Origin: Acidobacteriota bacterium
GTDB taxonomy: Bacteria; Actinomycetota; Acidimicrobiia; Acidimicrobiales; RAAP-2
Assembly: GCA_018971385.1 (NCBI GenBank)
Contig: JAGXAY010000001.1
Location: 34,822 to 98,821 of the forward strand
Direction: 5' to 3'
Length of the DNA: 64,000 bases
The notes under the pieces were generated by a model, which worked only from the letters and a program-made list of their open reading frames with translations, was not told where the DNA came from and did not search any database. A program made the position numbers and the translations under genes. Shown piece by piece: positions 6,741-58,847 of this stretch (within the stretch, counting starts at the first letter, position 1; each line of letters begins with the position of its first letter).

Positions 6741-8123
6741 CTACCGCCGTCGAACCTTCGTTCCCTGAGAAGAATCCTCAACAATCCAGCCCCGACTTTC
6801 GAGCTCGGACCGAATTCGGTCGGCCTCCGACCAGTCCCGACGGGCCCGGGCCTCGTCACGGCGGACCACCAAATCGGCCACCTCACTCGGTAACGGCTCC
6901 TCGTCACCGACCAACGACAGTCCGAGAGCGCCAAAGAGGGTCGCTACTGCGTGAGCCCACGTCTCGGCGGATGAATCTCCCTGATCAGCGAGGGAGTTCG
7001 CCGTCGCCACCCCGTCGAATAACGCCGCGACCGCGGCCGGTGTGTTGAGATCGTCGTCGAGCAACCTCGTGACCTCCTGCACAAAGTTCTCCACCTCCGG
7101 TGCCCAGGCGGCCACCGGGTCCACCACGCCGTCACCGGCGAGTCGAGGCAGGAGAAATCGTCGAGCGAGCGCGTCGAGACGAGCCACACTTCGCTCCGCG
7201 TCGGCGATGGTCTCAGTATTGACGTCGAGGGGCGAACGGTAGTGGGAGCGGATGACGAGGAGACGGTAGGCCCGCGGATCGGTTCGTTCGAGCAGGTCGG
7301 TGAGGGAGGTGAAGTTGCCGAGTGACTTGCTCATCTTCTCGCCGCCCGACATCACAAATCCGTTATGCGCCCAGCGCCGCGCGAAGGGCCGACCGAGAGC
7401 GACCGCCTGGGCTCGCTCGTTCTCGTGGTGGGGAAAGGCGAGGTCCAGGCCACCACAGTGGAGGTCGAAGCCCTCCCCGAGCAGTCCGAGACTCATCACC
7501 ACGCACTCGGTGTGCCATCCCGGACGCCCCGCCCCAAAGGACGCGGTCCACTGTGGTTCTCCGGGCTTGGCGAACTTCCAGAGTGCGAAGTCGAGCGGGC
7601 TGCGCTTGTCACGACGGGCGTCGACGCGGGCCCCGGCCCGCAGTGACTCGAGGGGCTGGAGAGCGAGCAGACCGTAGTCGGCGACCGCGGACACGTCGAA
7701 GTAGATTCCGTCGCCGAGTGGATACGCCACCCCCCGCGCCATCAGCGTCTCGATGAGCTCGATCATCGAGTCAATCCACTCGGTTGCTCGCGGCGCCACG
7801 CTCGGGCGAAGGACGCCGAGTTGCGCCATCGAGGACCACCACACCTCTTCGAAGCGTGTCGCCACTGCCGATTCGCTCACGCCCTCTCGCTCGGCGCGTT
7901 GGATGATTTTGTCGTCGACGTCGGTGATGTTGGAGACGAAGCGTACGTTGAAGCCCCGAAAGTGGAGCCACCGGCGCAGTACGTCCCACACCAGGGTGAA
8001 GCGGCCGTGGCCCACGTGGGGTACGTCGTAGACGGTGGGGCCGCACACGTAAATCGACACCTCTCCGGGGTGACGGGGACGAAGGTCGAGGACCTCCTGG
8101 GCGGCGGTATCGAAGAGTCGCAT
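6741..8123 (-). CDS. cysS: Cysteine--tRNA ligase
   Basis: CGPTVYDVPHVGH, GRPGWHTEC, DLAFPHHENE, KMSKSLGNF and a C-terminal ADRIR domain. Confidence 0.97.
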   Translation of the reverse strand: MRLFDTAAQEVLDLRPRHPGEVSIYVCGPTVYDVPHVGHGRFTLVWDVLRRWLHFRGFNVRFVSNITDVDDKIIQRAEREGVSESAVATRFEEVWWSSMAQLGVLRPSVAPRATEWIDSMIELIETLMARGVAYPLGDGIYFDVSAVADYGLLALQPLESLRAGARVDARRDKRSPLDFALWKFAKPGEPQWTASFGAGRPGWHTECVVMSLGLLGEGFDLHCGGLDLAFPHHENERAQAVALGRPFARRWAHNGFVMSGGEKMSKSLGNFTSLTDLLERTDPRAYRLLVIRSHYRSPLDVNTETIADAERSVARLDALARRFLLPRLAGDGVVDPVAAWAPEVENFVQEVTRLLDDDLNTPAAVAALFDGVATANSLADQGDSSAETWAHAVATLFGALGLSLVGDEEPLPSEVADLVVRRDEARARRDWSEADRIRSELESRGWIVEDSSQGTKVRRR

Positions 8124-8183
8124 CACCCGTCCAAACTACTGAGACTCCCGGGCGTTCACGGGGTCCCCGTAGACTGAGCCGCT

Positions 8184-10733: not shown

Positions 10734-11918
10734 TACCCGTTCGCAGAAGGCGGCACAGGCTCGCACCACGGACGCGGTCCGGGGACTGCGCACGATGTCG
10801 AAGGCGTGTTGAGTCACCGGCATCTCGACGTAGTAGACCTCGCGTAAACCCAGCTCACGGGACTTCGCCACGAAGCGTCGGGCCACCTCCACGTGCACGA
10901 GAGTGTCGTGAGTGCCCTGGACGACCAGGAGAGGTGGGGCCCCTTCGTGGAGACGGTGGAGAGGTGACGCCGACTCCACCGCGTCGGGATTCTCCGCCAC
11001 CTCGGGGGCGAAGACCATCCCGTCGAGGAATCGACGCAGTCCCGCTCCCCACCCTCGCCAGACGGACTCGTCTCCGGTCATCTCGAGAACCCCGTAGAGC
11101 GAGATCACGCCCCGCACCGCCAGAGGGGAGTCGCTCGCCCACGGATGACCCCCGCTCACTCCGTAGAGGGCGGCCATTTGCCCGCCGGCCGAGTCTCCGG
11201 CGACGACGACGCGGCTCGGGTCGCCACCCATTTGGGCGCCGTGTCGCTTGACCCACCCCATGACGGCGTTGACGTCCTCCATCTGGGCCGGCCATCGATT
11301 CCCCGGGGCCAGTCGGTAGTTGGCCGTGACCACCAGCCAGCCCCGAGCGACCATTTCGTGAAGAAGGGGCCGTCCCTGTTCTCGTTTGTCACCAAGCATC
11401 CAGGCACCACCGTGGAAGTAGACGAGGATCGGCGCCCGTGAGGGTGTCACCGACTGGCGCCACACGTCCAGGCGCTGATGGGGATCGGGGCCGTACGCCA
11501 GATCGGCGCTGATCTGGAGCCAGGGTGGGTGCACGGGCAGAGGCACGACGCGGCGCCACCCGGGAGTTGTCCGTCTCGACGCGGGAGAGCGGGTGACGTC
11601 AAGGGGTGTTCCGGCGAGAGCTCGGCGAACGACCCGGTCGGCAGAGAGCAAGATGCCGATGAGAATCACGTTCTCGAGCGCCGACAGTAGTGCGAGCAGT
11701 GCGACGCTCCAGCGCCAGGGCGCCGACGTGGGCCAACCCCACCAGTGGAGGAGCCCCACTAACCCGGCGTCGAGGAGCAGAGCGAGGAGGGGAACCTCCC
11801 CCGCCACGAGACCGAGGGGGAAAGAGAGAGTCTTCAGGCGGCCGCGCCGCCCGGGACGCAGCGCCGTCGCGGCGGCGAGGGCGAGGATCAACTCCCCTAG
11901 TATCACGACGACGACCAC
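10590..11918 (-). CDS. Membrane-anchored alpha/beta hydrolase (HSL-family esterase/lipase)
   Basis: HGGAW oxyanion motif, GDSAGG nucleophile, QGTHDTLV (Asp) and TQHAFD (His); hydrophobic N-terminus. Confidence 0.88.
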   Translation of the reverse strand: MVVVVILGELILALAAATALRPGRRGRLKTLSFPLGLVAGEVPLLALLLDAGLVGLLHWWGWPTSAPWRWSVALLALLSALENVILIGILLSADRVVRRALAGTPLDVTRSPASRRTTPGWRRVVPLPVHPPWLQISADLAYGPDPHQRLDVWRQSVTPSRAPILVYFHGGAWMLGDKREQGRPLLHEMVARGWLVVTANYRLAPGNRWPAQMEDVNAVMGWVKRHGAQMGGDPSRVVVAGDSAGGQMAALYGVSGGHPWASDSPLAVRGVISLYGVLEMTGDESVWRGWGAGLRRFLDGMVFAPEVAENPDAVESASPLHRLHEGAPPLLVVQGTHDTLVHVEVARRFVAKSRELGLREVYYVEMPVTQHAFDIVRSPRTASVVRACAAFCERVLTLGGESGTHDNLGGLHHRAGENHAGVGEVTGSPLHPLEELAGSLDD

Positions 11919-11950: not shown

Positions 11951-12853
11951 GTGCAACCACCTCTCGCGCGCCTTCGCGGAACGGTCGGCCTCTGGTCCAG
12001 CGCTCACGAGGACGTTCCGCCGGCGGCAGCCCCCCTCCTCGTACGAGAGGCTGAAGCCCTCGGCTACCAGGCCTACTGGTTTCCCGAGTCGTGGTTTCGC
12101 GAGTCCTTGACGAGCGCCACGATGCTGCTCGGGGGAACCTCGGGCCTCACCATCGCCACCGGGATTACCAGTATTTGGGGTCGAGACGCGGTGAGCGCGC
12201 TCAGTGCCGCGCGCACCCTCAACGCCGCCTACGGGGACCGATTCGTTCTCGGACTCGGCGTGAGTCACTCCCCTCTCGTCGAACGCCTCCGCGCCCAGCA
12301 CTACGAGAAGCCCTACGACCGCATGAGGGCCTACCTCGACCACATGGACGAGGCGAAAAGTCTCTCGCCCGAAGCGGATCATCCCTATACCCGGGTCATC
12401 GCGGCGCTCGGGCCCCGCATGCTCGAGCTCGCCGCCACTCGCGCCGACGGGGCTCACACCTATCTCGTTGACCCCCGCCACACCGAGGAAGCGCGCTCTC
12501 GGCTCGGTGGCGCCTTTCTCGCCGTCGAACAGGCGGTGGTCGTGACGCCCTCCCGAGAAGAGTTTCTCGAACGGGCCCACCGTCATCTCGAGTTCTACAC
12601 CGGTCTCGAGAACTATCGCGCGAACTGGCGCCGCCTCGGCTTTAGCGAGGAGGACTTCGTTCGGGGTGGTTCGGAACGACTCTGCGACGCCCTGGTCGTC
12701 CACGAAGACGGTGACGGAGGCGCCCTCGCCGAGCGCACGGCCGACCATCGGGCCGCGGGCGCCGACCACGTCTGCCTCCAGGTTCTCTACGCCCCCGGAA
12801 AGAGCCCGGTCGAGGACTGGCGACGCTGCGCCGAACTACTCGCCCTGCGCTAG
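11951..12853 (+). CDS. LLM-class, probably F420-dependent, oxidoreductase (TIGR03620-like)
   Basis: ATGITSIWGRD, RFVLGLGVSH, AALGPRMLELA..RADGAH and AGADHVCLQV motifs. Likely start GTG 11951. Confidence 0.88.
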   Translation: MQPPLARLRGTVGLWSSAHEDVPPAAAPLLVREAEALGYQAYWFPESWFRESLTSATMLLGGTSGLTIATGITSIWGRDAVSALSAARTLNAAYGDRFVLGLGVSHSPLVERLRAQHYEKPYDRMRAYLDHMDEAKSLSPEADHPYTRVIAALGPRMLELAATRADGAHTYLVDPRHTEEARSRLGGAFLAVEQAVVVTPSREEFLERAHRHLEFYTGLENYRANWRRLGFSEEDFVRGGSERLCDALVVHEDGDGGALAERTADHRAAGADHVCLQVLYAPGKSPVEDWRRCAELLALR

Positions 12854-13281
12854 CGCGGCGGAATCACGGTGACCGGTGGTTCACCAGAGCCACCACGAAT
12901 CACCCGCACGCTGAGCGCGATGAGACCGATCCAAGCGATTTCGAGGGCGCTCAGTAGTATCCAACCCACCGTGATGAGAACCGCGCCCACGACGAGGCCC
13001 GAGAGAAGTCCGTGGCGCACCATGGCGGCAATCCACAAGGGCAGCCAGGCGATCGTCCAATTGAGTACGGGCGCGAGAAAGACGGCCCCGACCCGGCGAC
13101 GCCACCCGAGATAGGCGCCGAGCAGGGCTCCGAGCAGAGCGCCCTCGAGGAGAGAACTGGCGGACTGACCGGCCCGCAACTCCCAGGACACCTCGACCAC
13201 GGTCATCACCACCGCCCAGGCGATCATGACGGCGTTGACGTGGCCCCGAGCGCGCTGTCGCCACTCCAGAATTACGGTCAC
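12850..13281 (-). CDS. Small hypothetical membrane protein (about 4 TM)
   Basis: Hydrophobic ORF filling the gap between flanking genes; no family recognised. Confidence 0.6.
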   Translation of the reverse strand: MTVILEWRQRARGHVNAVMIAWAVVMTVVEVSWELRAGQSASSLLEGALLGALLGAYLGWRRRVGAVFLAPVLNWTIAWLPLWIAAMVRHGLLSGLVVGAVLITVGWILLSALEIAWIGLIALSVRVIRGGSGEPPVTVIPPR

Positions 13282-13338
13282 GGAGGTACCCTACCAATCC
13301 GGTTTCGACAGACGCCCCTCTCCCGGTACGCTCGCGCT

Positions 13339-14343
13339 ATGGCTTTTGGCGTCCTCGCGTTACTCGGCTCGGGTGAGACCGGCCCCGGCATGACCAAGGT
13401 GCACCGGGCGTTGCTCGAGCGCGCCCCCTCCGACCTCGCGGTGAACCTCAACACTCCCTACGGTTTCCAGGAAAACGTGCCGCAGATGACGGAGAAACTG
13501 CAGGAGTACTTCCGCGTGTCGCTGCGTACCGAACTACGCGACGGCGCTCTCGCCCACTTCGAGTCCGCGAGTGACGAGGACCGTCAGCGGTTCCGCCACC
13601 TCGTTCGCGAGGCGGGCTACGTCTTCGCGGGACCCGGATCCCCCTCGTACGCACTGCGTCAGTGGCAACCCTTGGGGGTTGTGGACGACCTCCTTTCCGT
13701 CCTCGCGAAGGACGGGGTGGTGTGCTTTTCCTCGGCCGCCGCTCTCACCCTCGGTACTCACACCGCCCCCATCTACGAGATCTACAAAGTGGGTTCGGAC
13801 CTGCGCTGGCTCGAGGGTCTCGGCCTCACGGCCCGCCTCGGCCTTTCGTGCGTGGTCGTCCCCCACTACAACAACGCCGAGGGGGGCAACTACGACACGT
13901 CCCGTTGCTACCTCGGTGAGCGGCGCTTGCGCCTGCTCGAAGAGCACCTCGAACCGGGCACCCCGATCCTCGGCGTCGACGAACACACGGCCTGCGTCAT
14001 TGACTGGCGCGAGGGAACTTTAAGTGTCTCGGGCAAGGGTCAGGTGCACTGGCGTCGAGACGGAGGTGACAACGTCTTCTCCTCCGGAGAGGTCGTTCCC
14101 CTGTCGGAGTTGGGCGCCCGGACGACTCCTCTGCCCGAGGTGGCGGATCTCGCCCCCGTCGCCCCCAGCGTGGACGCCGCTGAGGTCACTCAGTTGCGCC
14201 AGAGCCGTGACGACCTCGTCGCCCTCCTCGATGAGTTACGGCGCCACGCTCGCGAGAGTAAGGACTTTGCGACCGCCGACCGCATTCGCGACGCTCTCGT
14301 GAAGTCGGGTGTCGACGTTCGCGACGGCGCTCTTAAGTCCTAG
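13339..14343 (+). CDS. Peptidase S51/cyanophycinase-like (class I GAT fold) protein with a C-terminal CysRS-like domain
   Basis: LLGSGET, VFAGPGSPSY, CFSSAAA, VVPHYNN and GVDEHTA motifs. Tail ELRRHARESKDFATADRIRDALVKSGVDVRD resembles the CysS C-terminus. Likely start ATG 13339. Confidence 0.75.
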   Translation: MAFGVLALLGSGETGPGMTKVHRALLERAPSDLAVNLNTPYGFQENVPQMTEKLQEYFRVSLRTELRDGALAHFESASDEDRQRFRHLVREAGYVFAGPGSPSYALRQWQPLGVVDDLLSVLAKDGVVCFSSAAALTLGTHTAPIYEIYKVGSDLRWLEGLGLTARLGLSCVVVPHYNNAEGGNYDTSRCYLGERRLRLLEEHLEPGTPILGVDEHTACVIDWREGTLSVSGKGQVHWRRDGGDNVFSSGEVVPLSELGARTTPLPEVADLAPVAPSVDAAEVTQLRQSRDDLVALLDELRRHARESKDFATADRIRDALVKSGVDVRDGALKS

Positions 14344-15440
14344 GACGACACCGCGCAACGATTCGGTCCGAGCTCTAGTTCCGCGACGTCGGCCGACAAC
14401 TCCTCGAGTCCTGCGTTCACCCGAACGATTCGCTGGTAGTTCGGGGGACGATCCTTCACGTGGGTGAGGGCCCAGGCGACGAACTCTTCCTCCTCGAGGC
14501 TCAGGGCCGCGAGAGAGTGGCGTAACTCGCCGAGGGGCGCGGCGACGGGGGTGCCAACGTGCACGTCCACGACCGGACCGTAGTGGGCGGGAAAGACGAT
14601 GGTGTCGTCGGACAGCGGAAGAATCCGCTCGTGCAAACTACGAAAAAGAGCTCGGGCGAAAGGCTCGGCCTGCTCGGCGAGGTCGGGTCGACCCACGGAT
14701 TCGAGAAAGAGAGTGTCTCCGCTAAATACCGCCGCCTCCCCGAGGCGGTACATCGTCGACCCCTCCGTGTGTCCCGGCACCGACACCGCCGACACCACGA
14801 GGGAAACACCGTCCGTGAGCGATAGTTCTAGGCCGTCCTCGAGGGAGTGAAAGCCAAACGAGAACGGGTCGTGGGGGCTCAGCCAGAGTTCCGCCCCCGT
14901 TAGTTCGACCAGACGCCGCGAACCGGACAGGTGATCCGCGTGAAGGTGGGTGTCCACTACGTAAGCGACGGACCACCCGTGCTCTGCGGCCAGCGAGCGG
15001 TAGATCTCGACCTCGAGAGACGGATCGATGACAACGGCCCGGTCGCCGGCCCCGATGACGTAGGAGAGGCAACCCTTGCCTCGCCGACGCACCTGCACCA
15101 CCGTCGCCCCCGCGACGACTGAGTCCACGGTGTCGTACGCATCAGCCCAGGCCGCCATGCCACCGTCCAAGACCGCGCTCGCTCGTCCCCGCTCGGCCAG
15201 CAGACGCGCGGCGTTCTCTGCTCGAGAACCGCGAGCACACACCACTACGACTCGACTCGACTCGGGAATCTCGTTGAATCGGTCGCCGAGTTGGCCGAGC
15301 GGGATGTTTCTCGCACCCGGAATACTCCAGTCTTCGACTTCGTCGGGTTCGCGCACGTCGAGCACGAACACCTCCGGATCGGCATCGAGTAACTCCACCA
15401 CAGTGGATGCCGTCACGGTCGTTACGAGGTCGCTGGACAC
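14340..15440 (-). CDS. Rhodanese-MBL-fold fusion (sulfurtransferase/persulfide dioxygenase-like)
   Basis: N-terminal rhodanese (LDVREPDE, CARGSR). C-terminal metallo-beta-lactamase fold (THLHADHLSG, PGHT, FSGDTLF..VGRPDL, PAH). Confidence 0.9.
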   Translation of the reverse strand: MSSDLVTTVTASTVVELLDADPEVFVLDVREPDEVEDWSIPGARNIPLGQLGDRFNEIPESSRVVVVCARGSRAENAARLLAERGRASAVLDGGMAAWADAYDTVDSVVAGATVVQVRRRGKGCLSYVIGAGDRAVVIDPSLEVEIYRSLAAEHGWSVAYVVDTHLHADHLSGSRRLVELTGAELWLSPHDPFSFGFHSLEDGLELSLTDGVSLVVSAVSVPGHTEGSTMYRLGEAAVFSGDTLFLESVGRPDLAEQAEPFARALFRSLHERILPLSDDTIVFPAHYGPVVDVHVGTPVAAPLGELRHSLAALSLEEEEFVAWALTHVKDRPPNYQRIVRVNAGLEELSADVAELELGPNRCAVSS

Positions 15441-15462: not shown

Positions 15463-18400
15463 CTATCCGGCGAGGAGGAAACTCCGCGTCACCGTCGCGC
15501 GACCGAGCCGATTGGACGCCGTCCACGTCACCACAACTCGCCTCGTCGACGGCGTGAGGGCGACGACACACTGAGTGCCGCGGACGACGCACGAGCCGCG
15601 CGAGGGCGTGACCTCGACTCGGTAGGTCGGAGTCGGAAACCCTGGCGCGGGGCGCCACCTGAGGGTGAACTGGTTCCCTCGTCTCTCGGCGCGAAGATCC
15701 ACGTTGGCGATACCGGGAGCGGCCTCGGCCCGAACGACCACCGACCGTTGGCCCGTCGTCGTTCCCACCGAGTTAATAGCCGACACAGTGAAGGAGTACC
15801 GAACTCCGGGTCGAAGCGAGTTCACGGTGCACGACGTGGCCCGGGTCGAACAGACTTGAGTCCCCGAACGCGTGCGCACGACGAAGCGGGTCACTCTCGG
15901 CACCGAGGGTCCCGTTCGCCACGAGATGACGAGGCGAGGCCAGTGGGGCGTCAGCGTCGGCATCGAGGGTCGCCAGGGGTCACCCTGGGCGAGAACGACG
16001 TTCGACGAGGCGGACGGGGCCGAAGCACCGGGAACCCCCGTCACGGTCGTAGTGACGACGAAGTGGTACCGAACTCCCGGCGTCAGTCCGGTGACGGCAC
16101 AGGTCGTGGACTTGGTCACACAGGTCACCGAACCCGGCACGGCCGTGACCACGTACCCGCTCGCTCCGGGATACGCCGTGACTTTGTTCCAGGACACGAG
16201 CACCCGAGCACCCGCGACTTTGGCAACAACGTTCGTGGGGGTGGCCGGTTCGATGACCGGAGTAAAACTCCCGGTCAGAGGGGCCGAGGATCCGCCGGGC
16301 GTTTGCGCCACCACCGTCGCGCTGTAGGCCGTGGTATTCGAGAGTCCGGTGATCACGCAACTGGTCAGCGTGGTGACGCAGGACGCACCGTTGGACAACG
16401 TCACGACGTAGGTGGGAGCGACGCCCCCCGAGGTACCGGCCACCCAACTCAGAGCCACTCCCCCGGGCTCGGGAACGACGCCGAGCGACGAGGGGCTACC
16501 CGGCACGGCGAGGGGGGTCGTGACGATGCTCGGCAGACTGGCGGGTCCTTGTCCCGCCGCGTTGAACCCACTGACCTGAAAACGGTAGGACTGACCGTCC
16601 GTCAAACCGCTCACTACGCAACTGGTCGCCGGGGCGTTCGCCGTGCAGCCCATCCCCGTCGCCCGGTCCACGACGAGAAAGCTCGAGGCCGGTGCCACCC
16701 CGGCGGGTGGGGTCGCCGGGATCCAACTCACCGTCGCCCCTCCGTCACTGGGCGTCACGCTGACCAGACCCGGTGCCGGGGGCTGGTAGCCGTCGAGAAA
16801 GGAGGCGGAAAGTCCGGAACCGTCATTCGCCAGAGCAACCCGCACTCCGTACGACCCGGGAGGAATCACCCAGCCGGGCGACCACTCCTCCATGGCGCTC
16901 TCGGGAATCGTGATCGTCACGACCTGGGACTGGCCCGGTGATAGGGAGACCGAGGTCACACCGGCGACTTGATTGGCCGGCTCCCCCGTCGAACTCGGTG
17001 GCGTGAGGTACACCTGCGGTGAGACTCGTCCGGCGACTCCCCCGGTGTTGGTGACCGTGACCGAAACCGCGACGGATCCGTCGCTCTGGAGAGCCGCACT
17101 CACTCCCGACAACTGGAACGTCGTGTAGCTCAGTCCGAAGCCCCAAGGAAACAGCGGAGTGACTCCGTTCGCCGCGTACCAGGAAGCGCCCACGGCCAGG
17201 CCACCGAGGGCGTTCAAGTCGGCGGTCACCGGCTCCTGGGGCCACGTCACGAAGGGCACCATGGGGGCGTGCGCGTCGGACGGGGGGAACGTCACCGGCA
17301 GGTGGCCGGAGAAGTTCGTCACTCCCGTGAGGAGGGCCCCGAGAGCGTCTCCGCCCTCCTCCCCCGAGTACCAGGCCTCCACGACTCCCGCGACCGAGGA
17401 GAGCCACGGCATCAGCACCGGACCCCCAGTGTGAAGAACCACCACCGTTCGGGGGTTCTCCGCGGCCACCGCCTCGACGAGTTGGTTCTGGTACCCCGGA
17501 AGATTGAGCGTCGTCAAGTCCTGCCCCTCGCCCGAGAGCGTTCCGACATCCACCAGAGAGACCCGGCCCGCCGCGGCGTCCGACCGGGCGAGAGTCGTCA
17601 TCTGGGCGAGGTAGGAGTCAAGGACGGCCGCCCCGACAACTGGTGTCGGACCGGTCGAGTTCCACACGAGGGTGTAGGTCTGGGGGACATTAGAGAAGGC
17701 CGGCGGGACGGTGAACTCGTTCGTCGTTCCCGGTCCCGCGAACTGCTCCAGTAGCGGGGTGTTATTGGCGCTAAAGAGTCCGACCTCGGCCGAACTGCGA
17801 ACGGTCACGTCGACCGTCGTTCCCGTCGGTAACTGCAGCGACGCCTCGGTATAGCCCGGGAGGGTCGGGTCGGGTTGGAGATTCGTCAAGGGCACGTTCA
17901 CGAGGGGTGGAGGGGAGTACGCCCCCTGAATGGACGTGACGTTTCCTACTCCGAGGGGCGAGTTCTGAAGGCCCGTGAGATCACTCACCATGGTCGGAGT
18001 ATTCATAATCTGGGCGCTACCCACCCCCTGGAGCCACGCCGTTGACGACGCGTTGCCGTACACCGAGACGGGTAGTGACGTCGAGAGAGGGAGGACGTTC
18101 CCGCTGTTCTTTAGGAGCACCATGGACTCTTCGGCCGTGGTGAGTGCCACTTGACGGGCAGACGCGGTGTCGACGGGGACGTTGTTCGTTGCCGTGATGG
18201 GCTGTTGTATGAGGTTGTTGGCGAACATCATGGTGAGAACATCACTCACGGCTCGATTGAGGACCGAAGGGTCGAGAGCCCCCGAGGCGACCGCCGCCGT
18301 CACGGCACTCGGATCGTAGGTCTTGATGAGATCGACACCAGACTGCAGCGCCGTGACTTCTTGACTGGTGGTGACCGCTTGAAAGTCGGTCCTAATGAAT

Positions 18401-19200
18401 CCGGAGAACCCGAGGTTCTGGGCCGCACTCGACAACAGGGCCGAGTTAGCACAGGTGGTGACACCGTTCGTCTGCCCGTACGCGCACATAAGGGCCGCGG
18501 CGCCCGCCCTGGTCGCGGCTTCGAAGGGACGAAGATAGACCTCGTAGAGGGGACGATCACTCACACTCATGTTGACGTTGTGACGGTTGGACTCCTGCAC
18601 GTATACCCCGAAGTGCTTAGGTTCTACGGCCACGCCCGCCGAACGCAGACCCTGAATCAACGATTGGCCCATCAGAGTGGTGAGTCCAGGAGCGTCGGAG
18701 AAGTTTTCAAAACTACGACCCCAGTTGGAGTAGACGATCACGTTGAGTTCCGGTGTCTGGGACATCGCGATGCCTTCGGTGCGAAGCTCTTGTCCGAGGG
18801 CGGCCCCGAGTTGAGTCACGACCCCGGGATCAAAAGTGGCCGCCTGGGCAATCGGTGCGGGAAAGACCGTGACCGGCGCTGAGCCGCTAACAATACCGGC
18901 CGGTCCGTCACTCAAACTGAGTGACGGGATGCACAACGATGGTATGGCCGTCGTCTCGTTCTGCACCGGACCCACATTTTGAAGATTGATAGCGGCAATC
19001 TTTTGAGCAGTAGTCATCTGGGCGATGACCTCACTCGCCAGCTCGGCCGGCGGCGCCACTTGAGTGACCCAGGGGCACGTCGTCGCCACGTGAGCACTCG
19101 CGCCAGCCGGTCCGCCGTGACTAAGGGTGATGAGTGCCGCGGCCACCACCACGGCCCCGAGACTGGGGCGTACGAATTTCACGCGGTGACCTACCTTCAC
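15463..19200 (-). CDS. Secreted GH3 beta-glycosidase with tandem C-terminal fibronectin type III repeats
   Basis: Signal peptide; LSDGPAG, GRSFENF, PKHFGVY, GFIRTDF (nucleophile Asp), MVLLKN and PLFPWGFGLSYTTF; then four full FN3 repeats plus a degenerate fifth. Confidence 0.9.
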   Translation of the reverse strand: MKVGHRVKFVRPSLGAVVVAAALITLSHGGPAGASAHVATTCPWVTQVAPPAELASEVIAQMTTAQKIAAINLQNVGPVQNETTAIPSLCIPSLSLSDGPAGIVSGSAPVTVFPAPIAQAATFDPGVVTQLGAALGQELRTEGIAMSQTPELNVIVYSNWGRSFENFSDAPGLTTLMGQSLIQGLRSAGVAVEPKHFGVYVQESNRHNVNMSVSDRPLYEVYLRPFEAATRAGAAALMCAYGQTNGVTTCANSALLSSAAQNLGFSGFIRTDFQAVTTSQEVTALQSGVDLIKTYDPSAVTAAVASGALDPSVLNRAVSDVLTMMFANNLIQQPITATNNVPVDTASARQVALTTAEESMVLLKNSGNVLPLSTSLPVSVYGNASSTAWLQGVGSAQIMNTPTMVSDLTGLQNSPLGVGNVTSIQGAYSPPPLVNVPLTNLQPDPTLPGYTEASLQLPTGTTVDVTVRSSAEVGLFSANNTPLLEQFAGPGTTNEFTVPPAFSNVPQTYTLVWNSTGPTPVVGAAVLDSYLAQMTTLARSDAAAGRVSLVDVGTLSGEGQDLTTLNLPGYQNQLVEAVAAENPRTVVVLHTGGPVLMPWLSSVAGVVEAWYSGEEGGDALGALLTGVTNFSGHLPVTFPPSDAHAPMVPFVTWPQEPVTADLNALGGLAVGASWYAANGVTPLFPWGFGLSYTTFQLSGVSAALQSDGSVAVSVTVTNTGGVAGRVSPQVYLTPPSSTGEPANQVAGVTSVSLSPGQSQVVTITIPESAMEEWSPGWVIPPGSYGVRVALANDGSGLSASFLDGYQPPAPGLVSVTPSDGGATVSWIPATPPAGVAPASSFLVVDRATGMGCTANAPATSCVVSGLTDGQSYRFQVSGFNAAGQGPASLPSIVTTPLAVPGSPSSLGVVPEPGGVALSWVAGTSGGVAPTYVVTLSNGASCVTTLTSCVITGLSNTTAYSATVVAQTPGGSSAPLTGSFTPVIEPATPTNVVAKVAGARVLVSWNKVTAYPGASGYVVTAVPGSVTCVTKSTTCAVTGLTPGVRYHFVVTTTVTGVPGASAPSASSNVVLAQGDPWRPSMPTLTPHWPRLVISWRTGPSVPRVTRFVVRTRSGTQVCSTRATSCTVNSLRPGVRYSFTVSAINSVGTTTGQRSVVVRAEAAPGIANVDLRAERRGNQFTLRWRPAPGFPTPTYRVEVTPSRGSCVVRGTQCVVALTPSTRRVVVTWTASNRLGRATVTRSFLLAG

Positions 19201-46846: not shown

Positions 46847-47087
46847 AAACCGTGTCCACTTTTCCTGGGGAATCTCACAGGTCGACTCGGAAATCTAGAG
46901 AAATCGACAGACCTCGGCCAGCGGTGCCCCTTGGTTCAACCGTCGTTGCCCTTCAGCGAGCTATCTGATCACTTGCTCGGGTGTGGTGTCGTTGCTTCTG
47001 CATGCAGTCCTCCTCATTCCATTCTGGAACATCTGGACCCGCCCAATTAGTGGATTTATTTCAGGCGGTCAGGCCACGAATAGAGCG

Positions 47088-48239
47088 TTATACATCAAAC
47101 CACGCCTGTGTAATTTTACCGATATTTTTAGCTGAAAACCGTTCGAGCGCAAATTCTCGACACAGATTTTGGTCTGCGACCGGCTTATCCTGCAACGACA
47201 GATTCCTTATCAAGGTTTCGGCCTCCGCATCATTAGTACCATCGACTACCCACCCAATTCCTCTGGGCACCAATGTCTTCGGAATTCTAATTGTGCCGTC
47301 GTTTTTTCCGCCAACGGCAGGCACATCCGAAACAATGACCGGGCGACCACAGGCGAGAGCCTCAACTCCTGGTCGACTTAGATAGTCAACATCGGCAGGG
47401 GACCACACCAACTCGGCCCACTGGTAATACTGTGCAAGCTCCCTGCGATCTGATACGTACGGAATGTACCTAAAGCTATCTTTCGAATTTGGGTCGCGAG
47501 GCGGTCCAATGATTGTTAGTTCCGCCAATCCCTCCTCCACCATTTTCATCATTACTCGTTGGCATTGACCAAATTTCTCGTAATCCGTTCGGCCTACGTA
47601 GAGAATTCGTAATTTACCTTCACGAACATCACTTTGTTCAATTGGAGATGAAAAAAACACATGATCAGCCCAATGCTCAACCGGAATGACTGCACGATTT
47701 AAAAGCACCTCATGAAGGTCCTTAGCGCTTGTTTGGGAATTGCAGATGGCGCCTTTGGTGGCAGACAGAATGCGACTCGTCAACCAGCGACTTGATTTTC
47801 CAAGCCATGAAACATAACCGTGGTATCCCAGCCAAATCGATGCTCCCGATATAAGGCGACAGGGTCGGAGTAGCGCAGTCGTCGCAATACCATTCCCAAC
47901 TACGACACCTGGCTTTCGGCGCCAAACCACGAAAAAAGCAATGACCGTCAACGGTAAGACATACGCGAAATTAAGCCAAAGCATATATCGACGAGCCGCA
48001 AATCGACCAATTTTCAAGTAGTCACCCATTGGCCAGGTAATCCACTCGACTTCAGGCAATCGCTGTCTGGGCGGAACTCCATATGCGACAACCACCCAAC
48101 GGATCTCCGGAGAGTTTGCAATGATGTCTTCGAACCAACCCCAACTCCCATACTTCAGTGCAGGAGATACCACAACCGCAATTTGTCCCGGTGAACTCTT
48201 ACTGTGTGCGCCGAAACGACCCTGCATATATTTATGCAT
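47088..48239 (-). CDS. Glycosyltransferase family 4
   Basis: ILYVGR, YYQWAE and GVEALACGRPVIVSD motifs. Confidence 0.8.
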   Translation of the reverse strand: MHKYMQGRFGAHSKSSPGQIAVVVSPALKYGSWGWFEDIIANSPEIRWVVVAYGVPPRQRLPEVEWITWPMGDYLKIGRFAARRYMLWLNFAYVLPLTVIAFFVVWRRKPGVVVGNGIATTALLRPCRLISGASIWLGYHGYVSWLGKSSRWLTSRILSATKGAICNSQTSAKDLHEVLLNRAVIPVEHWADHVFFSSPIEQSDVREGKLRILYVGRTDYEKFGQCQRVMMKMVEEGLAELTIIGPPRDPNSKDSFRYIPYVSDRRELAQYYQWAELVWSPADVDYLSRPGVEALACGRPVIVSDVPAVGGKNDGTIRIPKTLVPRGIGWVVDGTNDAEAETLIRNLSLQDKPVADQNLCREFALERFSAKNIGKITQAWFDV

Positions 48240-48296
48240 TTCCCATAACCTTCGAAAAAACCTTCCGATAATTCGACATCTCGGACTATGTGGACT

Positions 48297-49421
48297 TTAC
48301 GAAAGATGCGGTTGCCATGCAGAAAGAACTTCGGCAATATGTTCTTTCTCGGTAAGAGAAAGGGATTCTCTAACGGGTATCGAAAGTACAGAATTTGCGA
48401 GGATCTCGGCATTTTTACAACTAACACCGAAACCTAATTCCTTTACCACTGGATGCCCCGAAAGAGTGTACGGATAGTAAGCACGCGTTTCTACCTCATG
48501 AAGATGTGCCCAATTCTGTAGGTCATCGCGATATTTTCTATTTTCCAGTCTCAGCGTGTACTGATGGAAACAACTGATGCTCGCTCCAACTTCGAATGGT
48601 GGCAAAACAATATTTTCATTTAGGATCGAATCGTTGAAGTATTGAGCATTGCCCCTGCGCCCCATTGTTACGGTATCGATTTTTTCAAATTGCACGCGCA
48701 GTATTGCAGCTTGCAGATCCGTCATCCTTCCGTTGTATCCAACGGCCTGATGCTTATACGTTTCAATGGATCCATGACTACGAAGTAACTTCACTCGTTC
48801 GGCAATTGACGGATCGTCCGTTACGACTAGCCCCCCTTCACCGCATGCAATATTCTTACTTCCGTAGAAGGAGAACACGGATGTGCCAGTGCTGCCAATT
48901 TCGCCGATTCCTTCAACTTGTGCCCCTATTGCTTGGCACGCATCTTCAAGAACATAAATTCCATTTTCGACTGCGATTTTACGTATTTCCACCAAATCAA
49001 CAGGTCTGCCGTACAAGTGAACCGGCAATATGACCTTTGTTTTGTCAGTAATTAGTGACTTAATTTCCTCCACAGAAATATTCGATGTTTCGACATCAAT
49101 GTCTGCGAATATCGGGATTGCCCCAAGCTGAATAATGGGCTCAATGGTTCCAATGAAAGAAAATGATGTAGTAATTACCTCATCTCCAGGACCCACTCCC
49201 ATTGCCGCCAGGGCCAAAGTTATTCCCACCGTGCCATTTGAAACGGCGATGCATTGCGCCCCATCAAATCTTTTCGAAAAGGCATTCTCAACGTCAACCG
49301 TCTCTTGACCCATTGCAAGCTGACCAGTTCTCAGTACCCGAAGTACCGCCTCCTCGGTGGACTCATCGAGTGTTAATTTTGAGATTGAAATCACTGTGGG
49401 CTCCATCCACATTGTTGACAC
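48297..49421 (-). CDS. DegT/DnrJ/EryC1/StrS aminotransferase (WbpE/WlbC-like)
   Basis: SNGT, GDEVIT, PVHLYG, LEDACQAIG and PLP lysine in SFYGSKNIACGEGG. Confidence 0.93.
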   Translation of the reverse strand: MSTMWMEPTVISISKLTLDESTEEAVLRVLRTGQLAMGQETVDVENAFSKRFDGAQCIAVSNGTVGITLALAAMGVGPGDEVITTSFSFIGTIEPIIQLGAIPIFADIDVETSNISVEEIKSLITDKTKVILPVHLYGRPVDLVEIRKIAVENGIYVLEDACQAIGAQVEGIGEIGSTGTSVFSFYGSKNIACGEGGLVVTDDPSIAERVKLLRSHGSIETYKHQAVGYNGRMTDLQAAILRVQFEKIDTVTMGRRGNAQYFNDSILNENIVLPPFEVGASISCFHQYTLRLENRKYRDDLQNWAHLHEVETRAYYPYTLSGHPVVKELGFGVSCKNAEILANSVLSIPVRESLSLTEKEHIAEVLSAWQPHLS

Positions 49422-49975
49422 ATGTCAGTTGTACGTTTTCCGCAAAAACAGACCCATCCAATTTGCTTCGCGGGATTTCCCACTACCTGCGCGTGAGACG
49501 GAACCACTCGCGTCACTACACTTCCGGCTCCAACAAGAGCCCAATCCCCTACAGTGGTGCATACGATTACTGAACCAGCACCGATTGCTGCACCTTCTCC
49601 GATAGTGCAGCCGGTCGAAGTCCAGTCCGATGCGCCGAGAACCCTACCATCTTTTGCGATTGCTCGCGGATGAAGATCATTCGTCAATACGACGTGTGGG
49701 CCAATGAAGACCCCTTTGCCAACTACTGCCGGTGCGTAGATTTCTGCTCCATTTTGGATTTTCGAATTATCACCAATTCGAACATTTTCGTCAATAAAAC
49801 AACTTTTACCAATAATGGTGTTATCTCCAACTATTGCACCTTCTCGGATTTGGGTGAAGTGCCATACTTTGACACCCAATCCAAGATGCACGCCATCTTC
49901 AACGATTGCCGTAGAAGCCACAAAGCGAGATTTTGACATTTCGGGAATTGGAGCCACACTGTTTACGTCAGTCAT
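49391..49975 (-). CDS. Hexapeptide-repeat N-acyltransferase (WbpD/WlbB-like)
   Basis: VKVWHFTQI, KIQNG, GPHVVLTND..PR and GNPAKQIGWVCFCG motifs. Confidence 0.9.
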   Translation of the reverse strand: MTDVNSVAPIPEMSKSRFVASTAIVEDGVHLGLGVKVWHFTQIREGAIVGDNTIIGKSCFIDENVRIGDNSKIQNGAEIYAPAVVGKGVFIGPHVVLTNDLHPRAIAKDGRVLGASDWTSTGCTIGEGAAIGAGSVIVCTTVGDWALVGAGSVVTRVVPSHAQVVGNPAKQIGWVCFCGKRTTDMCQQCGWSPQ

Positions 49976-50969
49976 TAGGTGTAGAACTCACCTTCTGTCG
50001 GATAATTTCTGTTGCATTTTGGCATGCAGCCAAAGCCGCAAACGCTTCCTCCGTCGATATCGACGGGGTATCTTCTCCAAGGATGCAGTTGGCAAAATGC
50101 ATTAATTCTCTCCTCAAGGGTTCTCCTTGATTTACCCAGAGAGGCTTCCCCTCTGCAGTTTGCCAAATTGCTCTGAAGTTCGTCGTAGAACTATCAACAG
50201 AATCTACCTGTCCTTGATACACCGTTACTTCTTGTCGCACGTAATCGAGATCAACGAAGCCACCGGTTCCAGTCACGCTGAGCCGACGACTTTTGAGAGG
50301 GGTGATCCAATTCGTCTCAACCGCAGCCGTGACCTTTCCGTATGTCAACCAAATGAACGCATAGTCTTCATCCAAATTTCCAGGAAGCGCTCCTCCAGTT
50401 GCACCCATAACAATGGGCCGTGCCCCAGTCAGTAACTGAATGGTGTCGATATCATGAATACCTAGATCAGTGATGACGTTCGTGGCTGGGACTGCGGGTC
50501 TTGCGACACCGACTCGACGCGCAGAAATTGAAAGAATGTTTCCCAAGTTTCCACGGTCAATTATTGACCGCACAGCATCGACGGCTGGATTGAAGCGCTC
50601 AATGTGACCTACAAGAAAAATTGCGCTGCTCTTAGCTGCGGCGTCAACCAATTTTATTGCGCTATTTACGTCCGGAGCGATTGGCTTTTCGAGCAGAACA
50701 TGGACATCTCTCTCCAAGAAATCTAGTGATTGCGAAACATGGAAGGAAGTAGGGCTTGCAATAACAACTGCATCTAAATCCTCTTCAAGTAATCCGACAT
50801 GGCTGCGGTGAAGCCCAATCTCACCACCCAAACCAACAAGGTCGCCATATTCATCGATTCTTGGATCGGATACTGCCACCACCTGAAATTCTGCGAGGTC
50901 ACGCAAAACTCTTAAGTGCTGTCGGCCCATCACTCCCAAGCCGACCAATCCCACCTTGATTGGCTTCAT
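49968..50969 (-). CDS. Gfo/Idh/MocA oxidoreductase (WbpB/WlbA-like)
   Basis: VGLGVMGRQH, EKP, GHIERFNPAV, DLGIHDID and WITPLKSR motifs. Confidence 0.9.
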   Translation of the reverse strand: MKPIKVGLVGLGVMGRQHLRVLRDLAEFQVVAVSDPRIDEYGDLVGLGGEIGLHRSHVGLLEEDLDAVVIASPTSFHVSQSLDFLERDVHVLLEKPIAPDVNSAIKLVDAAAKSSAIFLVGHIERFNPAVDAVRSIIDRGNLGNILSISARRVGVARPAVPATNVITDLGIHDIDTIQLLTGARPIVMGATGGALPGNLDEDYAFIWLTYGKVTAAVETNWITPLKSRRLSVTGTGGFVDLDYVRQEVTVYQGQVDSVDSSTTNFRAIWQTAEGKPLWVNQGEPLRRELMHFANCILGEDTPSISTEEAFAALAACQNATEIIRQKVSSTPND

Positions 50970-52147
50970 TGAGAGTACCCTTCCTTAGGCGGTTGATGCA
51001 TCGTAGAAATCGACTCAACAACCTTGGTCGAATGAGAAAGCCATTTAGAAATCGCATTAGCAGTTCTTTTTGCACTACCAATTCCGCCATACGGATCTGG
51101 TGTCCATCTGACATCACCGCAGGATTCCAACGATCGAGCCACCTCATATCCCAGTCGGGTAACGTCTGGAACAAGCACGTTCGCCCTAGCTTCAATGGTT
51201 TCAACCCACTCAGTGCTCGGACGTATCGTCAAGCACGGTACCCGAAGCCAAAAAGCCTCTTTCTGAACACCACCTGAATCTGTAATGCATATTTTCGAGT
51301 CCGCTAGGTGTCGCAAAGTCTCCGCATAGGACATTGGCTCCACAAAAGTGATTCCCGTTAAATCGATATCTGAAGCCCTTAAGCGTAGGAGTGAAGATTT
51401 TGTCCGAGGATGGACAGGCCAGATAAATTCGATGCCAGTTTGTAATGCTGTAGTCGCCAGGGCAATTACGAAACGTGGAAGAAAATCTGGATCATCGACA
51501 TTCTCTGAGCGATGAATGGTGACGAATCCCTTGAGATCGCGACTCTCGAATTGAGTGCACAAAGGAGCGACTTTGGCAAACACGTCATATTGAGGGTCAC
51601 CAGTTATTTCAATATCTCCGGTCATGCCCTCGTTAGTCAAAAGATCCGAACAGTTTGGAGAAACTGGAAGGAGCAATGAACTCAAATGATCAATCAGACG
51701 ACGATTGAGCTCTTCTTGCATCCTTCGGTCGCCAGACCTACATCCTGCCTCAATGTGAATCACTGGAACGAAAGCTTTTGCGGCGGCAATTGCGGCAGCG
51801 GCAGAGGAATCTGTATCTCCGTAGACCACCACGGCACTCACGGAATCCTCCAACAGTATTTTGGAAATTGCTTGAATCATGGCACCAAACCGCAACGCTT
51901 GATGAGTCTCAGTTAGAGACAATGCATAGGTTGCGGGTGGAAGGCTCAGTTCATCGATTAGGTCGTTCATCATATTGGAGTCATAATGCTGAAAAGTATT
52001 TAACAGGAGGACTTCAATTGATTGATCCGAGGATAGATGGTGCAGAATTTCTGCCGAACGAATTACTTCCGGGCGTGTTCCAATGACATATACGACTCGC
52101 TGAATCGCCACGCCGCTACACCGTTCCTTCGTGATATCGCGAATCAT
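50966..52147 (-). CDS. Non-hydrolysing UDP-GlcNAc-type 2-epimerase (WecB/WbpI-like)
   Basis: GTRPE, QHYD, YGDTDS, HIEAGCRS and TDSGGVQKEA motifs. Confidence 0.92.
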   Translation of the reverse strand: MIRDITKERCSGVAIQRVVYVIGTRPEVIRSAEILHHLSSDQSIEVLLLNTFQHYDSNMMNDLIDELSLPPATYALSLTETHQALRFGAMIQAISKILLEDSVSAVVVYGDTDSSAAAAIAAAKAFVPVIHIEAGCRSGDRRMQEELNRRLIDHLSSLLLPVSPNCSDLLTNEGMTGDIEITGDPQYDVFAKVAPLCTQFESRDLKGFVTIHRSENVDDPDFLPRFVIALATTALQTGIEFIWPVHPRTKSSLLRLRASDIDLTGITFVEPMSYAETLRHLADSKICITDSGGVQKEAFWLRVPCLTIRPSTEWVETIEARANVLVPDVTRLGYEVARSLESCGDVRWTPDPYGGIGSAKRTANAISKWLSHSTKVVESISTMHQPPKEGYSQ

Positions 52148-54416: not shown

Positions 54417-55117
54417 GTGGTGGCCGTTGGCTTCGCGATGTATCGGAATGGGAGCGTTTCAATACGCATAGGTAGGAGATCAGTACTTTCTACCAAACCA
54501 AAATTCACAATCTCACCAGACTTTGCAAATGCGACGCAGTAAATCCGAATTGGTGGCTCCAAAAAAGAACTTGAGTTGGTCACCGTAATTGTGTTTCTGC
54601 CTGAATTCCCTTTGAATTCAATTGAGGGAATTTTCTTCCACGATTTTGGACTTGACCAAAATTTCACGCTGATTTTCAAGTCATTTACTGCCGAGCCGCC
54701 AATCTCCTTAGAGTCAACTACAAACACAATCTCTTGACCTGGGTACACTTGCGCGACTTTCGTATTTATCTCATGCTGATTCAATGTGGATGTGGGGAAC
54801 CCTGGCATTGAGTCAAGTCTGACTTGATTGGCAACACGTTTCAAATCATTGCGGGCTATAACTAAAAGATATCTATTGTTGCCCTGCCCATTTAATTCGG
54901 CATCACTTATGACTGTCATCGTTTGCGGGTAATTCGATGGTCGTACCGTATGCGGGTTACTCGAAAGTGATTTTGAGAAATTACTCCAGCTTGATTGGAC
55001 GAGTGCCTGAAAGGTGCTCAATGCCAGGTATGAAACGATTACTCTGACAATCAGATTGCGGCGCCATCTCCTGACACCGCTATGCACAGCCAATTGATTC
55101 ACACCGACTCTATTCAA
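54386..55117 (-). CDS. Hypothetical exported protein
   Basis: 243-aa ORF in a low-GC block, hydrophobic N-terminal segment, overlaps the next gene's start; no confident family. Confidence 0.55.
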   Translation of the reverse strand: MNRVGVNQLAVHSGVRRWRRNLIVRVIVSYLALSTFQALVQSSWSNFSKSLSSNPHTVRPSNYPQTMTVISDAELNGQGNNRYLLVIARNDLKRVANQVRLDSMPGFPTSTLNQHEINTKVAQVYPGQEIVFVVDSKEIGGSAVNDLKISVKFWSSPKSWKKIPSIEFKGNSGRNTITVTNSSSFLEPPIRIYCVAFAKSGEIVNFGLVESTDLLPMRIETLPFRYIAKPTATTWSASCYEDS

Positions 55118-55367
55118 GTTAACTCCAGGATTGAATTTTTTCGTTCTGGCTTTGGTGGAGACTATGACCTGCTCCGGGCGCTGTTGTCGGCCCAGTTGAC
55201 ATACGCTTTAGTTTCACTCTTCCGAATTAACAAAAGCGCGGGCGGGCCAAGATGTCAACCAAACCGACAACTACGCGGATTGAATGAACGGGCAATGTCG
55301 CACTCCGGTACCAACACCCTTGGTCCACAGAACTCCCGAAGGGACCGGTCTTGTCCTCACCGTGTAA

Positions 55368-58550: not shown

Positions 58551-58847
58551 ATAGGACGAAGCGAGGGCGAGGGGATTCTGCATCGGATACGACCTAGGAC
58601 CTTCTACCTGACTTAAGCACGGCCCCGTAGCCACTTTCTCTCACAACGTTCTTAGGAACTGCTGTCCGAATGCTCCCCACTCTTTCCACAGAACATCTCA
58701 TTGTTTAAGCAAGAGCGATTGCGTTACTCTCCAATTCTACGAGAGACAACGCGAAAAGTCCTGGCCCGCGTCTTGCGATTCGGTGAAATCTATGTCTGCT
58801 ATTGGCCAAAAATGGTGTTATTCCACAGTGGATGCGGATACGCCGGG

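Follow-up and report, generated by a model that had tools for sequence, protein, structure and literature searches.

Trans-editing of tRNA is known from factors such as AlaX, YbaK/ProXp and DTD, and modules of aminoacyl-tRNA synthetases (aaRSs) are also found in proteins of other kinds: GCN2 carries a whole HisRS-like pseudo-synthetase as a sensor of uncharged tRNA, and MshC has kept the catalytic domain of cysteinyl-tRNA synthetase (CysRS) and lost the anticodon-binding domain. We know of no trans-acting factor specific for tRNA-Cys in bacteria and, to our knowledge, the peptidase S51 fold does not occur in any tRNA-editing or tRNA-dependent enzyme. The S51 enzyme MccG cleaves aminoacyl-nucleotide conjugates, namely the aspartamide-adenylate and -cytidylate of processed microcin C (PMC9239234), and the archaeal (crenarchaeal) protein ThrRS-ED joins a free-standing editing domain to a ThrRS anticodon-binding domain (described in PMC8762117). 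Here we describe a protein of 334 amino acids (aa), encoded by a complete open reading frame (ORF) with a TAG stop (13339..14343, + strand) in a 64,000-nucleotide stretch of an Acidobacteriota bacterium assembly (GCA_018971385.1, contig JAGXAY010000001.1, positions 34,822 to 98,821 of the forward strand). The whole stretch is hereafter called the window, and all coordinates refer to it. The protein consists of an S51-fold hydrolase domain followed by a C-terminal remnant of CysRS. This combination is uncharacterised so far; a preliminary description of the DNA, which had proposed the fusion from the letters alone, knew of no characterised function for it, and our full-text literature searches likewise found no paper on the fusion and no published function.

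The N-terminal part of the protein (aa 1-258; 13339..14112, +) was assigned by AlphaFold2 (AF2), Foldseek and phmmer as a serine hydrolase domain of the peptidase S51 fold, which is class I glutamine amidotransferase-like. The AF2 model of the window protein, built from a 30-sequence alignment, has a mean predicted local distance difference test score (pLDDT) of 87.9, and the PDB neighbours of the N-terminal domain that were significant in Foldseek (E ≤ 0.001) were exclusively S51 peptidases. The best match was 6nqc, a tail-less peptidase of an acI-B1 actinobacterium (E = 2e-14), and the cyanophycinases 3en0/7uqw, the pseudo-CphB 7uqv and the PepE structures 6a4r/1fy2/7c9b were matched at E = 1e-9 to 1e-11, with target-normalised template-modelling (TM) scores of 0.66-0.75 for the S51 structures. 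The phmmer comparison with 6nqc covers aa 3-250 and aligns S132, H176 and E215 with the motifs GCSAGA, PHF and GIDEVTA, respectively, of that enzyme. Ser132 (codon 13732..13734, +) is the predicted nucleophile and sits in an FSSAAA elbow, which reads FSSAA and not GxSAG in the window protein; His176 (13864..13866, +; PHYNNAEG) is the predicted general base, and Glu215 (13981..13983, +; GVDEHTA) the predicted third residue of the triad. Ser132 and His176 are each conserved in 432 of 433 family members, and Glu215 in 427. As the triad is kept in at least 427 of the 433, the N-terminal domain looks like a working Ser-His-Glu hydrolase with an intact triad, and not like a pseudo-enzyme.

The family represents a distant S51 branch with invariant motifs of its own, because the window protein reaches no S51 model while a relative, P0118, passes Pfam PF03575 (26.2 bits; cut-off, 23.9). 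The window protein gave no match to PF03575 even at E ≤ 1 and reached no NCBIfam S51 or cyanophycinase model, including the cyanophycinase equivalog TIGR02069, to which it gave no match; for the latter, the long relative P0169 scored 28.4 bits where 126.6 are required. By fold and triad, the window protein is a distant S51 member, and by any model threshold it is neither a cyanophycinase nor a PepE. The motifs that are invariant among the 433 members are GFQEN (aa 42-46), GPGS (98-101), YEIYK (146-150), NxEG (179-182) and DTxxCYxGxxR (186-196). GPGS (13630..13641, +; 433/433) aligns with FSGGDPHY of 6nqc and is the counterpart of the oxyanion-loop region that reads GGD/GGN in S51 enzymes. The first of the motifs lies in a near-invariant, family-specific loop, GFQENVPQMTEK (aa 42-53; 13462..13497, +), in which F43 and N46 are each found in 431, and Q44 in 425, of the 433 members. 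This loop is poorly modelled (pLDDT ~60 for residues 41-50) and is a candidate substrate or lid loop.

At the other end of the protein, aa 289-334 (14203..14340, +) were identified by hidden Markov model (HMM) searches, phmmer and profile comparisons as a remnant of the C-terminal, anticodon-binding domain of CysRS (Pfam CysS_C). In the model the tail folds into a helix-turn-helix and one short strand, with helices at 280-306 and 310-322 predicted at pLDDT 90-92. Taken as a single sequence, the tail gives a marginal signal. Pfam PF23493 (CysS_C) matched the window protein with E = 1.1e-4 and 22.6 bits, slightly below its cut-off of 23, which is passed by the relatives P0081 (28.8 bits) and P0118 (23.4 bits). 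Hence, of the two Pfam assignments expected from the preliminary description, the one for the tail was missed narrowly by the window protein and reached by its relatives, and the one for the hydrolase domain was absent from the window protein and present in P0118. The tail also matched the PDB CysRS 6ujd (phmmer, E = 3.6e-4), and the NCBIfam cysS models matched only the last 30-46 residues, with E ~1e-3 and 17-18 bits, where the cut-offs are 340-780. When the tail was compared pairwise by BLASTP with the CysS encoded in the window itself (6741-8135, -), no significant alignment resulted.

The family profiles, whereas the single-sequence signal is marginal, are significant and therefore decide the question of homology. 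We used a profile of the family centred on the window protein (A1) and another of the last 135 residues of long members (A2). A1 matched the CysRS tails in the PDB with E = 2e-7 to 9e-7, and A2 matched residues 362-486 of CysRS 8qhp (E = 5.7e-14) and residues 336-460 of E. coli CysRS (E = 1.3e-10); the span matched by A2 is the whole CysRS helical bundle together with the C-terminal alpha/beta anticodon-binding region. Against the CysS of the window, hhalign gave E = 2.1e-5 for A1 and 7.1e-8 for A2, and placed the tail on CysS residues 360-456. The C-terminal part of this CysS reads ...VVRRDEARARRDWSEADRIRSELESRGWIVED... (quoted string ...RRDEARARRDWSEADRIRSELESRGWIVED...), and the alignment with the tail that had been made by eye proved correct, with 12 identities in 27 positions around ADRIR, albeit it becomes statistically convincing only with profiles. 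An AF2 model of the region covered by A2 (pLDDT 92; predicted TM score, 0.62) had a single significant Foldseek match, the CysRS-tRNACys complex 1u0b; its global superposition on CysRS is poor (TM 0.37; root-mean-square deviation, 15.8), and the orientation of the subdomains is uncertain. The tail is a genuine homologue of the anticodon-binding region of CysRS, and the window copy has it in reduced form. The proposal of an S51-like hydrolase fused to a CysRS C-terminal domain is borne out on both sides, by structural neighbours that are S51 enzymes only and by the profile match at E = 5.7e-14, and all the strings on which it had been based (FSSAAA, VVPHYNN, GVDEHT and the tail LDELRRHARESKDFATADRIRDALVKSGVDVRD) occur in the 334-aa translation.

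The anticodon contacts of E. coli CysRS, as seen in 1U0B, are R427, W432, D436 and R439 (PMC13449415). The HMM alignment to 1li5/1u0b pairs these residues with R305, F310, D314 and R317 in the window protein (14251..14289, +). Among 314 members, the position of R305 holds arginine in 94% (and lysine in another 4%), that of F310 an aromatic residue in 97%, that of D314 aspartate in 99% and that of R317 arginine in 99%, at a mean column identity of 48% over the aligned C-terminal region. The conservation of anticodon-contacting Arg and Asp residues that the preliminary description had proposed to examine is thus present, at 94-99% for the whole R/aromatic/D/R set, and the RNA-contact residues of the tail are under strong purifying selection.

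The fusion is not a peculiarity of the window. Its relatives are spread over three phyla, and we found more than 7,600 clusters of them at 90% identity, 544 representatives at 50% identity (E < 1e-30) and at least 598 matches in species-representative genomes. The bulk belongs to Acidimicrobiia, and others occur in further Actinomycetota (Pseudonocardiaceae, Phytohabitans), Dormibacterota and Chloroflexia; cultured carriers include Ferrimicrobium acidiphilum and Phytohabitans kaempferiae. One family protein comes from a metagenome-assembled genome (MAG) labelled 'Mycobacterium sp.' (locus L079), and it is 65-97% identical to proteins of Ilumatobacteraceae/Acidimicrobiales MAGs, so that this label is probably wrong. 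The CysRS-like tail is present in 144 of the 149 best representatives at 50% identity (97%), and the five tail-less exceptions look like fragments or frameshifts. The tail being so regular, the fusion is a defining and obligate feature of a large family. In the databases its members are named 'hypothetical protein', 'cyanophycinase-like exopeptidase' or 'cysteinyl-tRNA synthetase'. The last name is wrong, as we rejected an identity with CysRS for want of the class I Rossmann catalytic domain (tRNA-synt_1e, HIGH/KMSKS); recognition of the family would correct both of these recurring mis-annotations.

The preliminary description overlooked that the window protein is a shortened minority variant of this family, and that members elsewhere have a conserved partner gene, an alpha/beta hydrolase. 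Most members are 400-450 aa long, and among the 149 representatives 98 possess the bundle and the terminal domain, in 33 the bundle is partial, and 13 have nothing but the terminal domain. The shortest class, to which the window protein belongs, is rare and concentrated among its close Acidimicrobiales relatives. It has neither the helical bundle nor the terminal G..W (G-T-x-W) strand, and ends in ...VDVRDGALKS. Between its two domains lies a variable Pro/Ala-rich linker (aa 259-288; 14113..14202, +), delimited by a pLDDT of 71-78, alignment gaps and linker-length classes; most members have a longer disordered linker and the CysRS-type helical bundle in its place. As only the contact-bearing helix-turn-helix is kept, binding by the window copy may be weaker or depend on a partner.

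We tentatively read the family protein as a hydrolase or acyl-transferase that docks on tRNA-Cys and acts at the 3' end of the tRNA. Its C-terminal module would have originated by duplication of the CysRS region that binds the tRNA-Cys anticodon. The module would dock on the GCA anticodon via R305, F310, D314 and R317, the flexible linker would allow the hydrolase domain to reach the acceptor end, and Ser132 would attack the ester carbonyl of the cargo on A76 to form an acyl-enzyme. If water resolves the latter, the outcome would be deacylation, i.e. quality control or trans-editing of aminoacyl-tRNA-Cys; alternatively, an acceptor amine may resolve it, which would amount to aminoacyl transfer, perhaps with participation of the partner alpha/beta hydrolase. 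Such an enzyme could serve quality control by removing damaged or wrong cargo from tRNA-Cys, or be part of a Cys-tRNA-dependent acyl donor system together with the alpha/beta hydrolase. In favour of this reading are the obligate fusion, the size and spread of the family, the match of long members to the whole anticodon-binding region of CysRS, the single structural match of the tail model (1u0b), the conserved contact residues and the intact triad. The geometry seems feasible, as a 21-residue flexible linker and a 27-residue helix in the window protein could span the ~70 Å from the anticodon to the 3' end; in comparison with these 21 disordered residues and the helix, the tether in most members is much longer and variable in length. 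The precedents of MccG and ThrRS-ED make the mechanism chemically and architecturally reasonable. It is attractive to speculate, with still greater reserve, that capture of the CysRS anticodon reader rendered an S51 serine hydrolase specific for tRNA-Cys and gave rise to an unrecognised class of tRNA-directed hydrolases or aminoacyl-transferases. If so, the family would represent a new enzyme class for translation quality control or tRNA-dependent metabolism; if not, an anticodon-binding domain would have been repurposed for a role outside RNA.

Several points weigh against a tRNA-directed enzyme. Binding of RNA by the family is predicted from homology, and the residues kept in the tail coincide with the best-conserved positions of this domain in CysRS itself, so that they may be retained partly for folding. 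In the window protein the CysRS module is without its helical bundle and its last beta-strand, and the N-terminal domain is acidic (net charge ~ -9, pI ~5.3). CysRS is not known to need editing, no misacylation problem is known for tRNA-Cys, and the known S51 substrates comprise small peptides and aminoacyl-nucleotides but no tRNA esters. The genomic neighbourhoods, for which we counted genes in 80 related loci (labelled L001 onward) and tRNA genes in 60 loci, add two more points: no tRNA-Cys gene was found in the window or near any of the 60 loci, and the neighbours point to peptide catabolism, as an alpha/beta hydrolase is encoded in 37 of the 80 loci, and in five Dormibacterota loci the gene of an M17 leucyl aminopeptidase lies ~70 nt upstream of the family gene.

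The alpha/beta hydrolase (Abhydrolase_1/6, Hydrolase_4) is the only widely shared neighbour. Its gene directly precedes the family gene, in the same orientation, in loci that span Actinomycetota and Chloroflexota; the two are separated by a 2-nt gap in L081 and overlap by 4 nt in L085, a spacing that suggests an operon with translational coupling. Its own identity is vague, as it gave generic matches only (esterases, epoxide hydrolases, haloperoxidases) besides a weak S33/proline-iminopeptidase similarity. No homologue of it was found within the 64-kb window. In L067 (9161-11331) a 603-aa ORF joins the alpha/beta-hydrolase region to the family gene, while the tail is encoded in another frame (10924-11331); either a frameshift of the MAG or a natural hydrolase-hydrolase fusion would account for this.

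These neighbours lend themselves to the most serious of the alternatives, which we nevertheless consider somewhat less likely: the protein would be a cytosolic peptidase or amidase of the usual S51 kind, with small substrates such as Asp-X or beta-Asp dipeptides or other short peptides released by a neighbouring aminopeptidase, and its CysRS-derived tail would be repurposed for oligomerisation, stability or protein-protein contact. The S51 fold and triad agree with such an enzyme, and so do the acidic N-terminal domain, the conserved partner with its Hydrolase_4 (S33 aminopeptidase) match and weak likeness to proline iminopeptidases, the M17 aminopeptidase of the Dormibacterota loci, and the fact that the window variant can do without most of its CysRS module. 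Nevertheless, the tail accompanies the hydrolase in 97% of the representatives, and its near-invariant positions are the four RNA-contacting ones, which a mere oligomerisation helix would not need. In addition, the score of P0169 against the cyanophycinase model stays far under the cut-off, and the hydrolase domain has its own invariant motifs, of which GFQEN, YEIYK and DTxxCY are not known from characterised S51 peptidases.

The conservation of the anticodon contacts and the peptidase-type neighbours could be accommodated together if the protein were a tRNA-sensing peptidase, in which (uncharged) tRNA-Cys on the CysRS module switches the hydrolase on or off, much as the HisRS-like domain of GCN2 responds to uncharged tRNA, and thereby couples peptide breakdown to the supply of cysteine or amino acids. 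Sulfate activation by ATP-sulfurylase/APS-kinase is the entry to cysteine synthesis, and in L081-L083 (5476-9263) a PUA_2/ATP-sulfurylase/APS-kinase gene stands directly before the alpha/beta-hydrolase and family gene pair on the same strand. Nevertheless, this neighbour is confined to one lineage, we know of no bacterial precedent for such a sensor, and the explanation presupposes an allosteric switch; we hold this explanation to be improbable.

We give even less credit to the idea that the family detoxifies antibiotics of the aminoacyl-nucleotide (aaRS-inhibitor) type, perhaps a cysteinyl- or aspartyl-adenylate mimic, in the manner of the S51 MccG enzymes that hydrolyse processed microcin C, many of them encoded by stand-alone genes (PMC9239234). 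The part of CysRS that is retained binds the anticodon and is not the adenylate-binding catalytic domain, the third triad residue is Glu here and Asp in the MccG clade, and mcc-type genes were absent from the neighbourhoods examined.

The least credible proposal, a Cys/persulfide-linked enzyme working with the abutting gene for a rhodanese and metallo-beta-lactamase (MBL) fusion of persulfide-dioxygenase-like type, had been drawn in the preliminary description from that adjacency and is not supported, as the rhodanese-MBL gene (14340-15440, -) is convergent and hence forms no operon with the family gene, adjoins it in only four of the 80 loci (L001, L002, L003, L006) and lies nearby in four more, all of close Acidimicrobiales, and is missing as a neighbour from the rest of the family, which marks lineage-specific synteny. 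The stop codons of the two genes overlap in the palindrome CTAG (14340-14343), and the rhodanese-MBL protein is weakly similar to glyoxalase II and to a Blh-type sulfurtransferase/dioxygenase. In L084 a second, stand-alone rhodanese gene adjoins the rhodanese-MBL orthologue.

The other recurrent neighbours are of narrower distribution. The family gene(+) of the window is preceded, in this order, by cysS(-), valS(+) and the genes for a membrane-anchored Abhydrolase_3 esterase(-), a luciferase-like oxidoreductase(+) and a 143-aa membrane protein(-), and is followed by rhodanese-MBL(-); the arrangement is conserved in only 11-13 close Acidimicrobiales loci. We considered the proximity of cysS and valS (~5 kb upstream) as a functional link and rejected it, as it was found in only 11-12 close Acidimicrobiales loci and reflects synteny. 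The 143-aa multi-pass membrane protein (12850-13281, -; cluster 11) is divergent from the family gene, keeps the same position in 13 Acidimicrobiales loci and has no Pfam or NCBIfam match. CtaA-ClpS-DUF2017 upstream and tRNA-Glu(UUC)-Asp-Phe directly downstream accompany the family gene in ~12 loci, which looks like a synteny block. The tRNA-Glu(UUC) gene lies ~50-400 nt downstream on the same strand in L021, L024, L029, L048, L049, L056, L062, L067, L068, L072 and L078, is often followed by tRNA-Asp and tRNA-Phe, and in most of those loci ClpS and DUF2017 are found upstream. ZnuABC genes are found downstream in 18 loci, apparently of one lineage, and look like another synteny block; ZIP with carbonic anhydrase, and NicO, occur in single loci each. 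We also considered that editing is needed when the zinc-dependent CysRS is starved of zinc. This idea gained no support from the neighbourhoods or from a scan for Zur-box-like palindromes, which detected nothing consistently positioned.

The start of the ORF at ATG 13339 is supported, as homologues share the N-terminus M..GVLALLGSGET and a longer frame from GTG 13012 would run into the divergent membrane-protein gene. The two genes are separated by 57 bp (13282-13338), in which no Shine-Dalgarno motif is visible before the ATG. A possible -10 hexamer, TACGCT (13327..13332, +), read from the sequence, ends 6 nt 5' of the A in the ATG. Leaderless mRNAs are frequent in Actinomycetota, and it is possible that the transcript of the family gene is leaderless and starts from TACGCT as its -10 element. 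Scans for consensus sigma-70 promoters and terminators at the gene found no consensus sites, and an Rfam scan detected no RNA element. In a search of sequencing runs with the region 12800-14500 as the query, all matching runs were of DNA, mostly mine-drainage metagenomes, with no RNA runs among them. Mine-drainage metagenomes contain near-identical DNA, with a share of sampled words that reaches 1.00, and further runs came from wastewater and soil; the likely source is an Acidimicrobiales bacterium of acid mine drainage.

Elsewhere in the window, positions 47000-56000 constitute a low-GC island (GC 0.47-0.50 versus ~0.64 elsewhere) with a sugar/glycan biosynthesis cluster on the - strand, which was probably acquired horizontally. 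It includes genes for a GT1 glycosyltransferase, a DegT/DnrJ aminotransferase, a hexapeptide acyltransferase, a GFO/IDH/MocA oxidoreductase and a UDP-GlcNAc 2-epimerase, two ORFs of 765 and 242 aa without a Pfam match, and a 1087-aa GT2+GT4 fusion (55368-58634). The region 15463-19200 (-) encodes a secreted-looking glycoside hydrolase family 3 protein of 1245 aa, after which comes a long series of fibronectin type III repeats.

Compared with known systems, the window protein shares the fold, and the Ser-His-Glu triad in the same motifs, with the S51 peptidases PepE (an aspartyl dipeptidase), CphB/CphE and 6nqc. 6nqc, a 'cyanophycinase-like exopeptidase' from acI-B1, is its closest neighbour in both structure and sequence. 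Nevertheless, the identity to PepE, the cyanophycinases and 6nqc is ~15-20%, none of them has a CysRS-derived module, and the window protein differs from them in its extra invariant motifs. In the place of the Arg-rich pocket that follows the catalytic His of cyanophycinases, the family has the invariant residues N179, E181 and D186. MccG resembles the family as an S51 hydrolase that acts on an aminoacyl-nucleotide bond, and demonstrates that the fold accommodates a nucleotide leaving group (PMC9239234), albeit it differs in its Ser-His-Asp triad, in having no tRNA-binding module, and in a small-molecule substrate that targets AspRS. With CysRS (helical bundle/DALR_2 plus CysS_C; 1li5, 1u0b, 8qhp) the long members share ~120 residues of homology, of which the window copy keeps ~45, whereas the Rossmann catalytic domain, HIGH/KMSKS and the zinc site of CysRS are missing from the family. 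GCN2 and MshC are alike in that aaRS modules were recruited into non-synthetase proteins, and the part of CysRS kept in MshC is the reverse of that kept here. From the trans-editing factors the family differs in its hydrolytic domain, which is S51 and gave no match to YbaK/INS, AlaX, ThrRS-N2/DTD-like or CP1 domains in Foldseek and HMM searches. The crenarchaeal ThrRS-ED is built on the same plan as the family, with a hydrolytic domain attached to a tRNA-recognition module that stems from an aaRS (PMC8762117).

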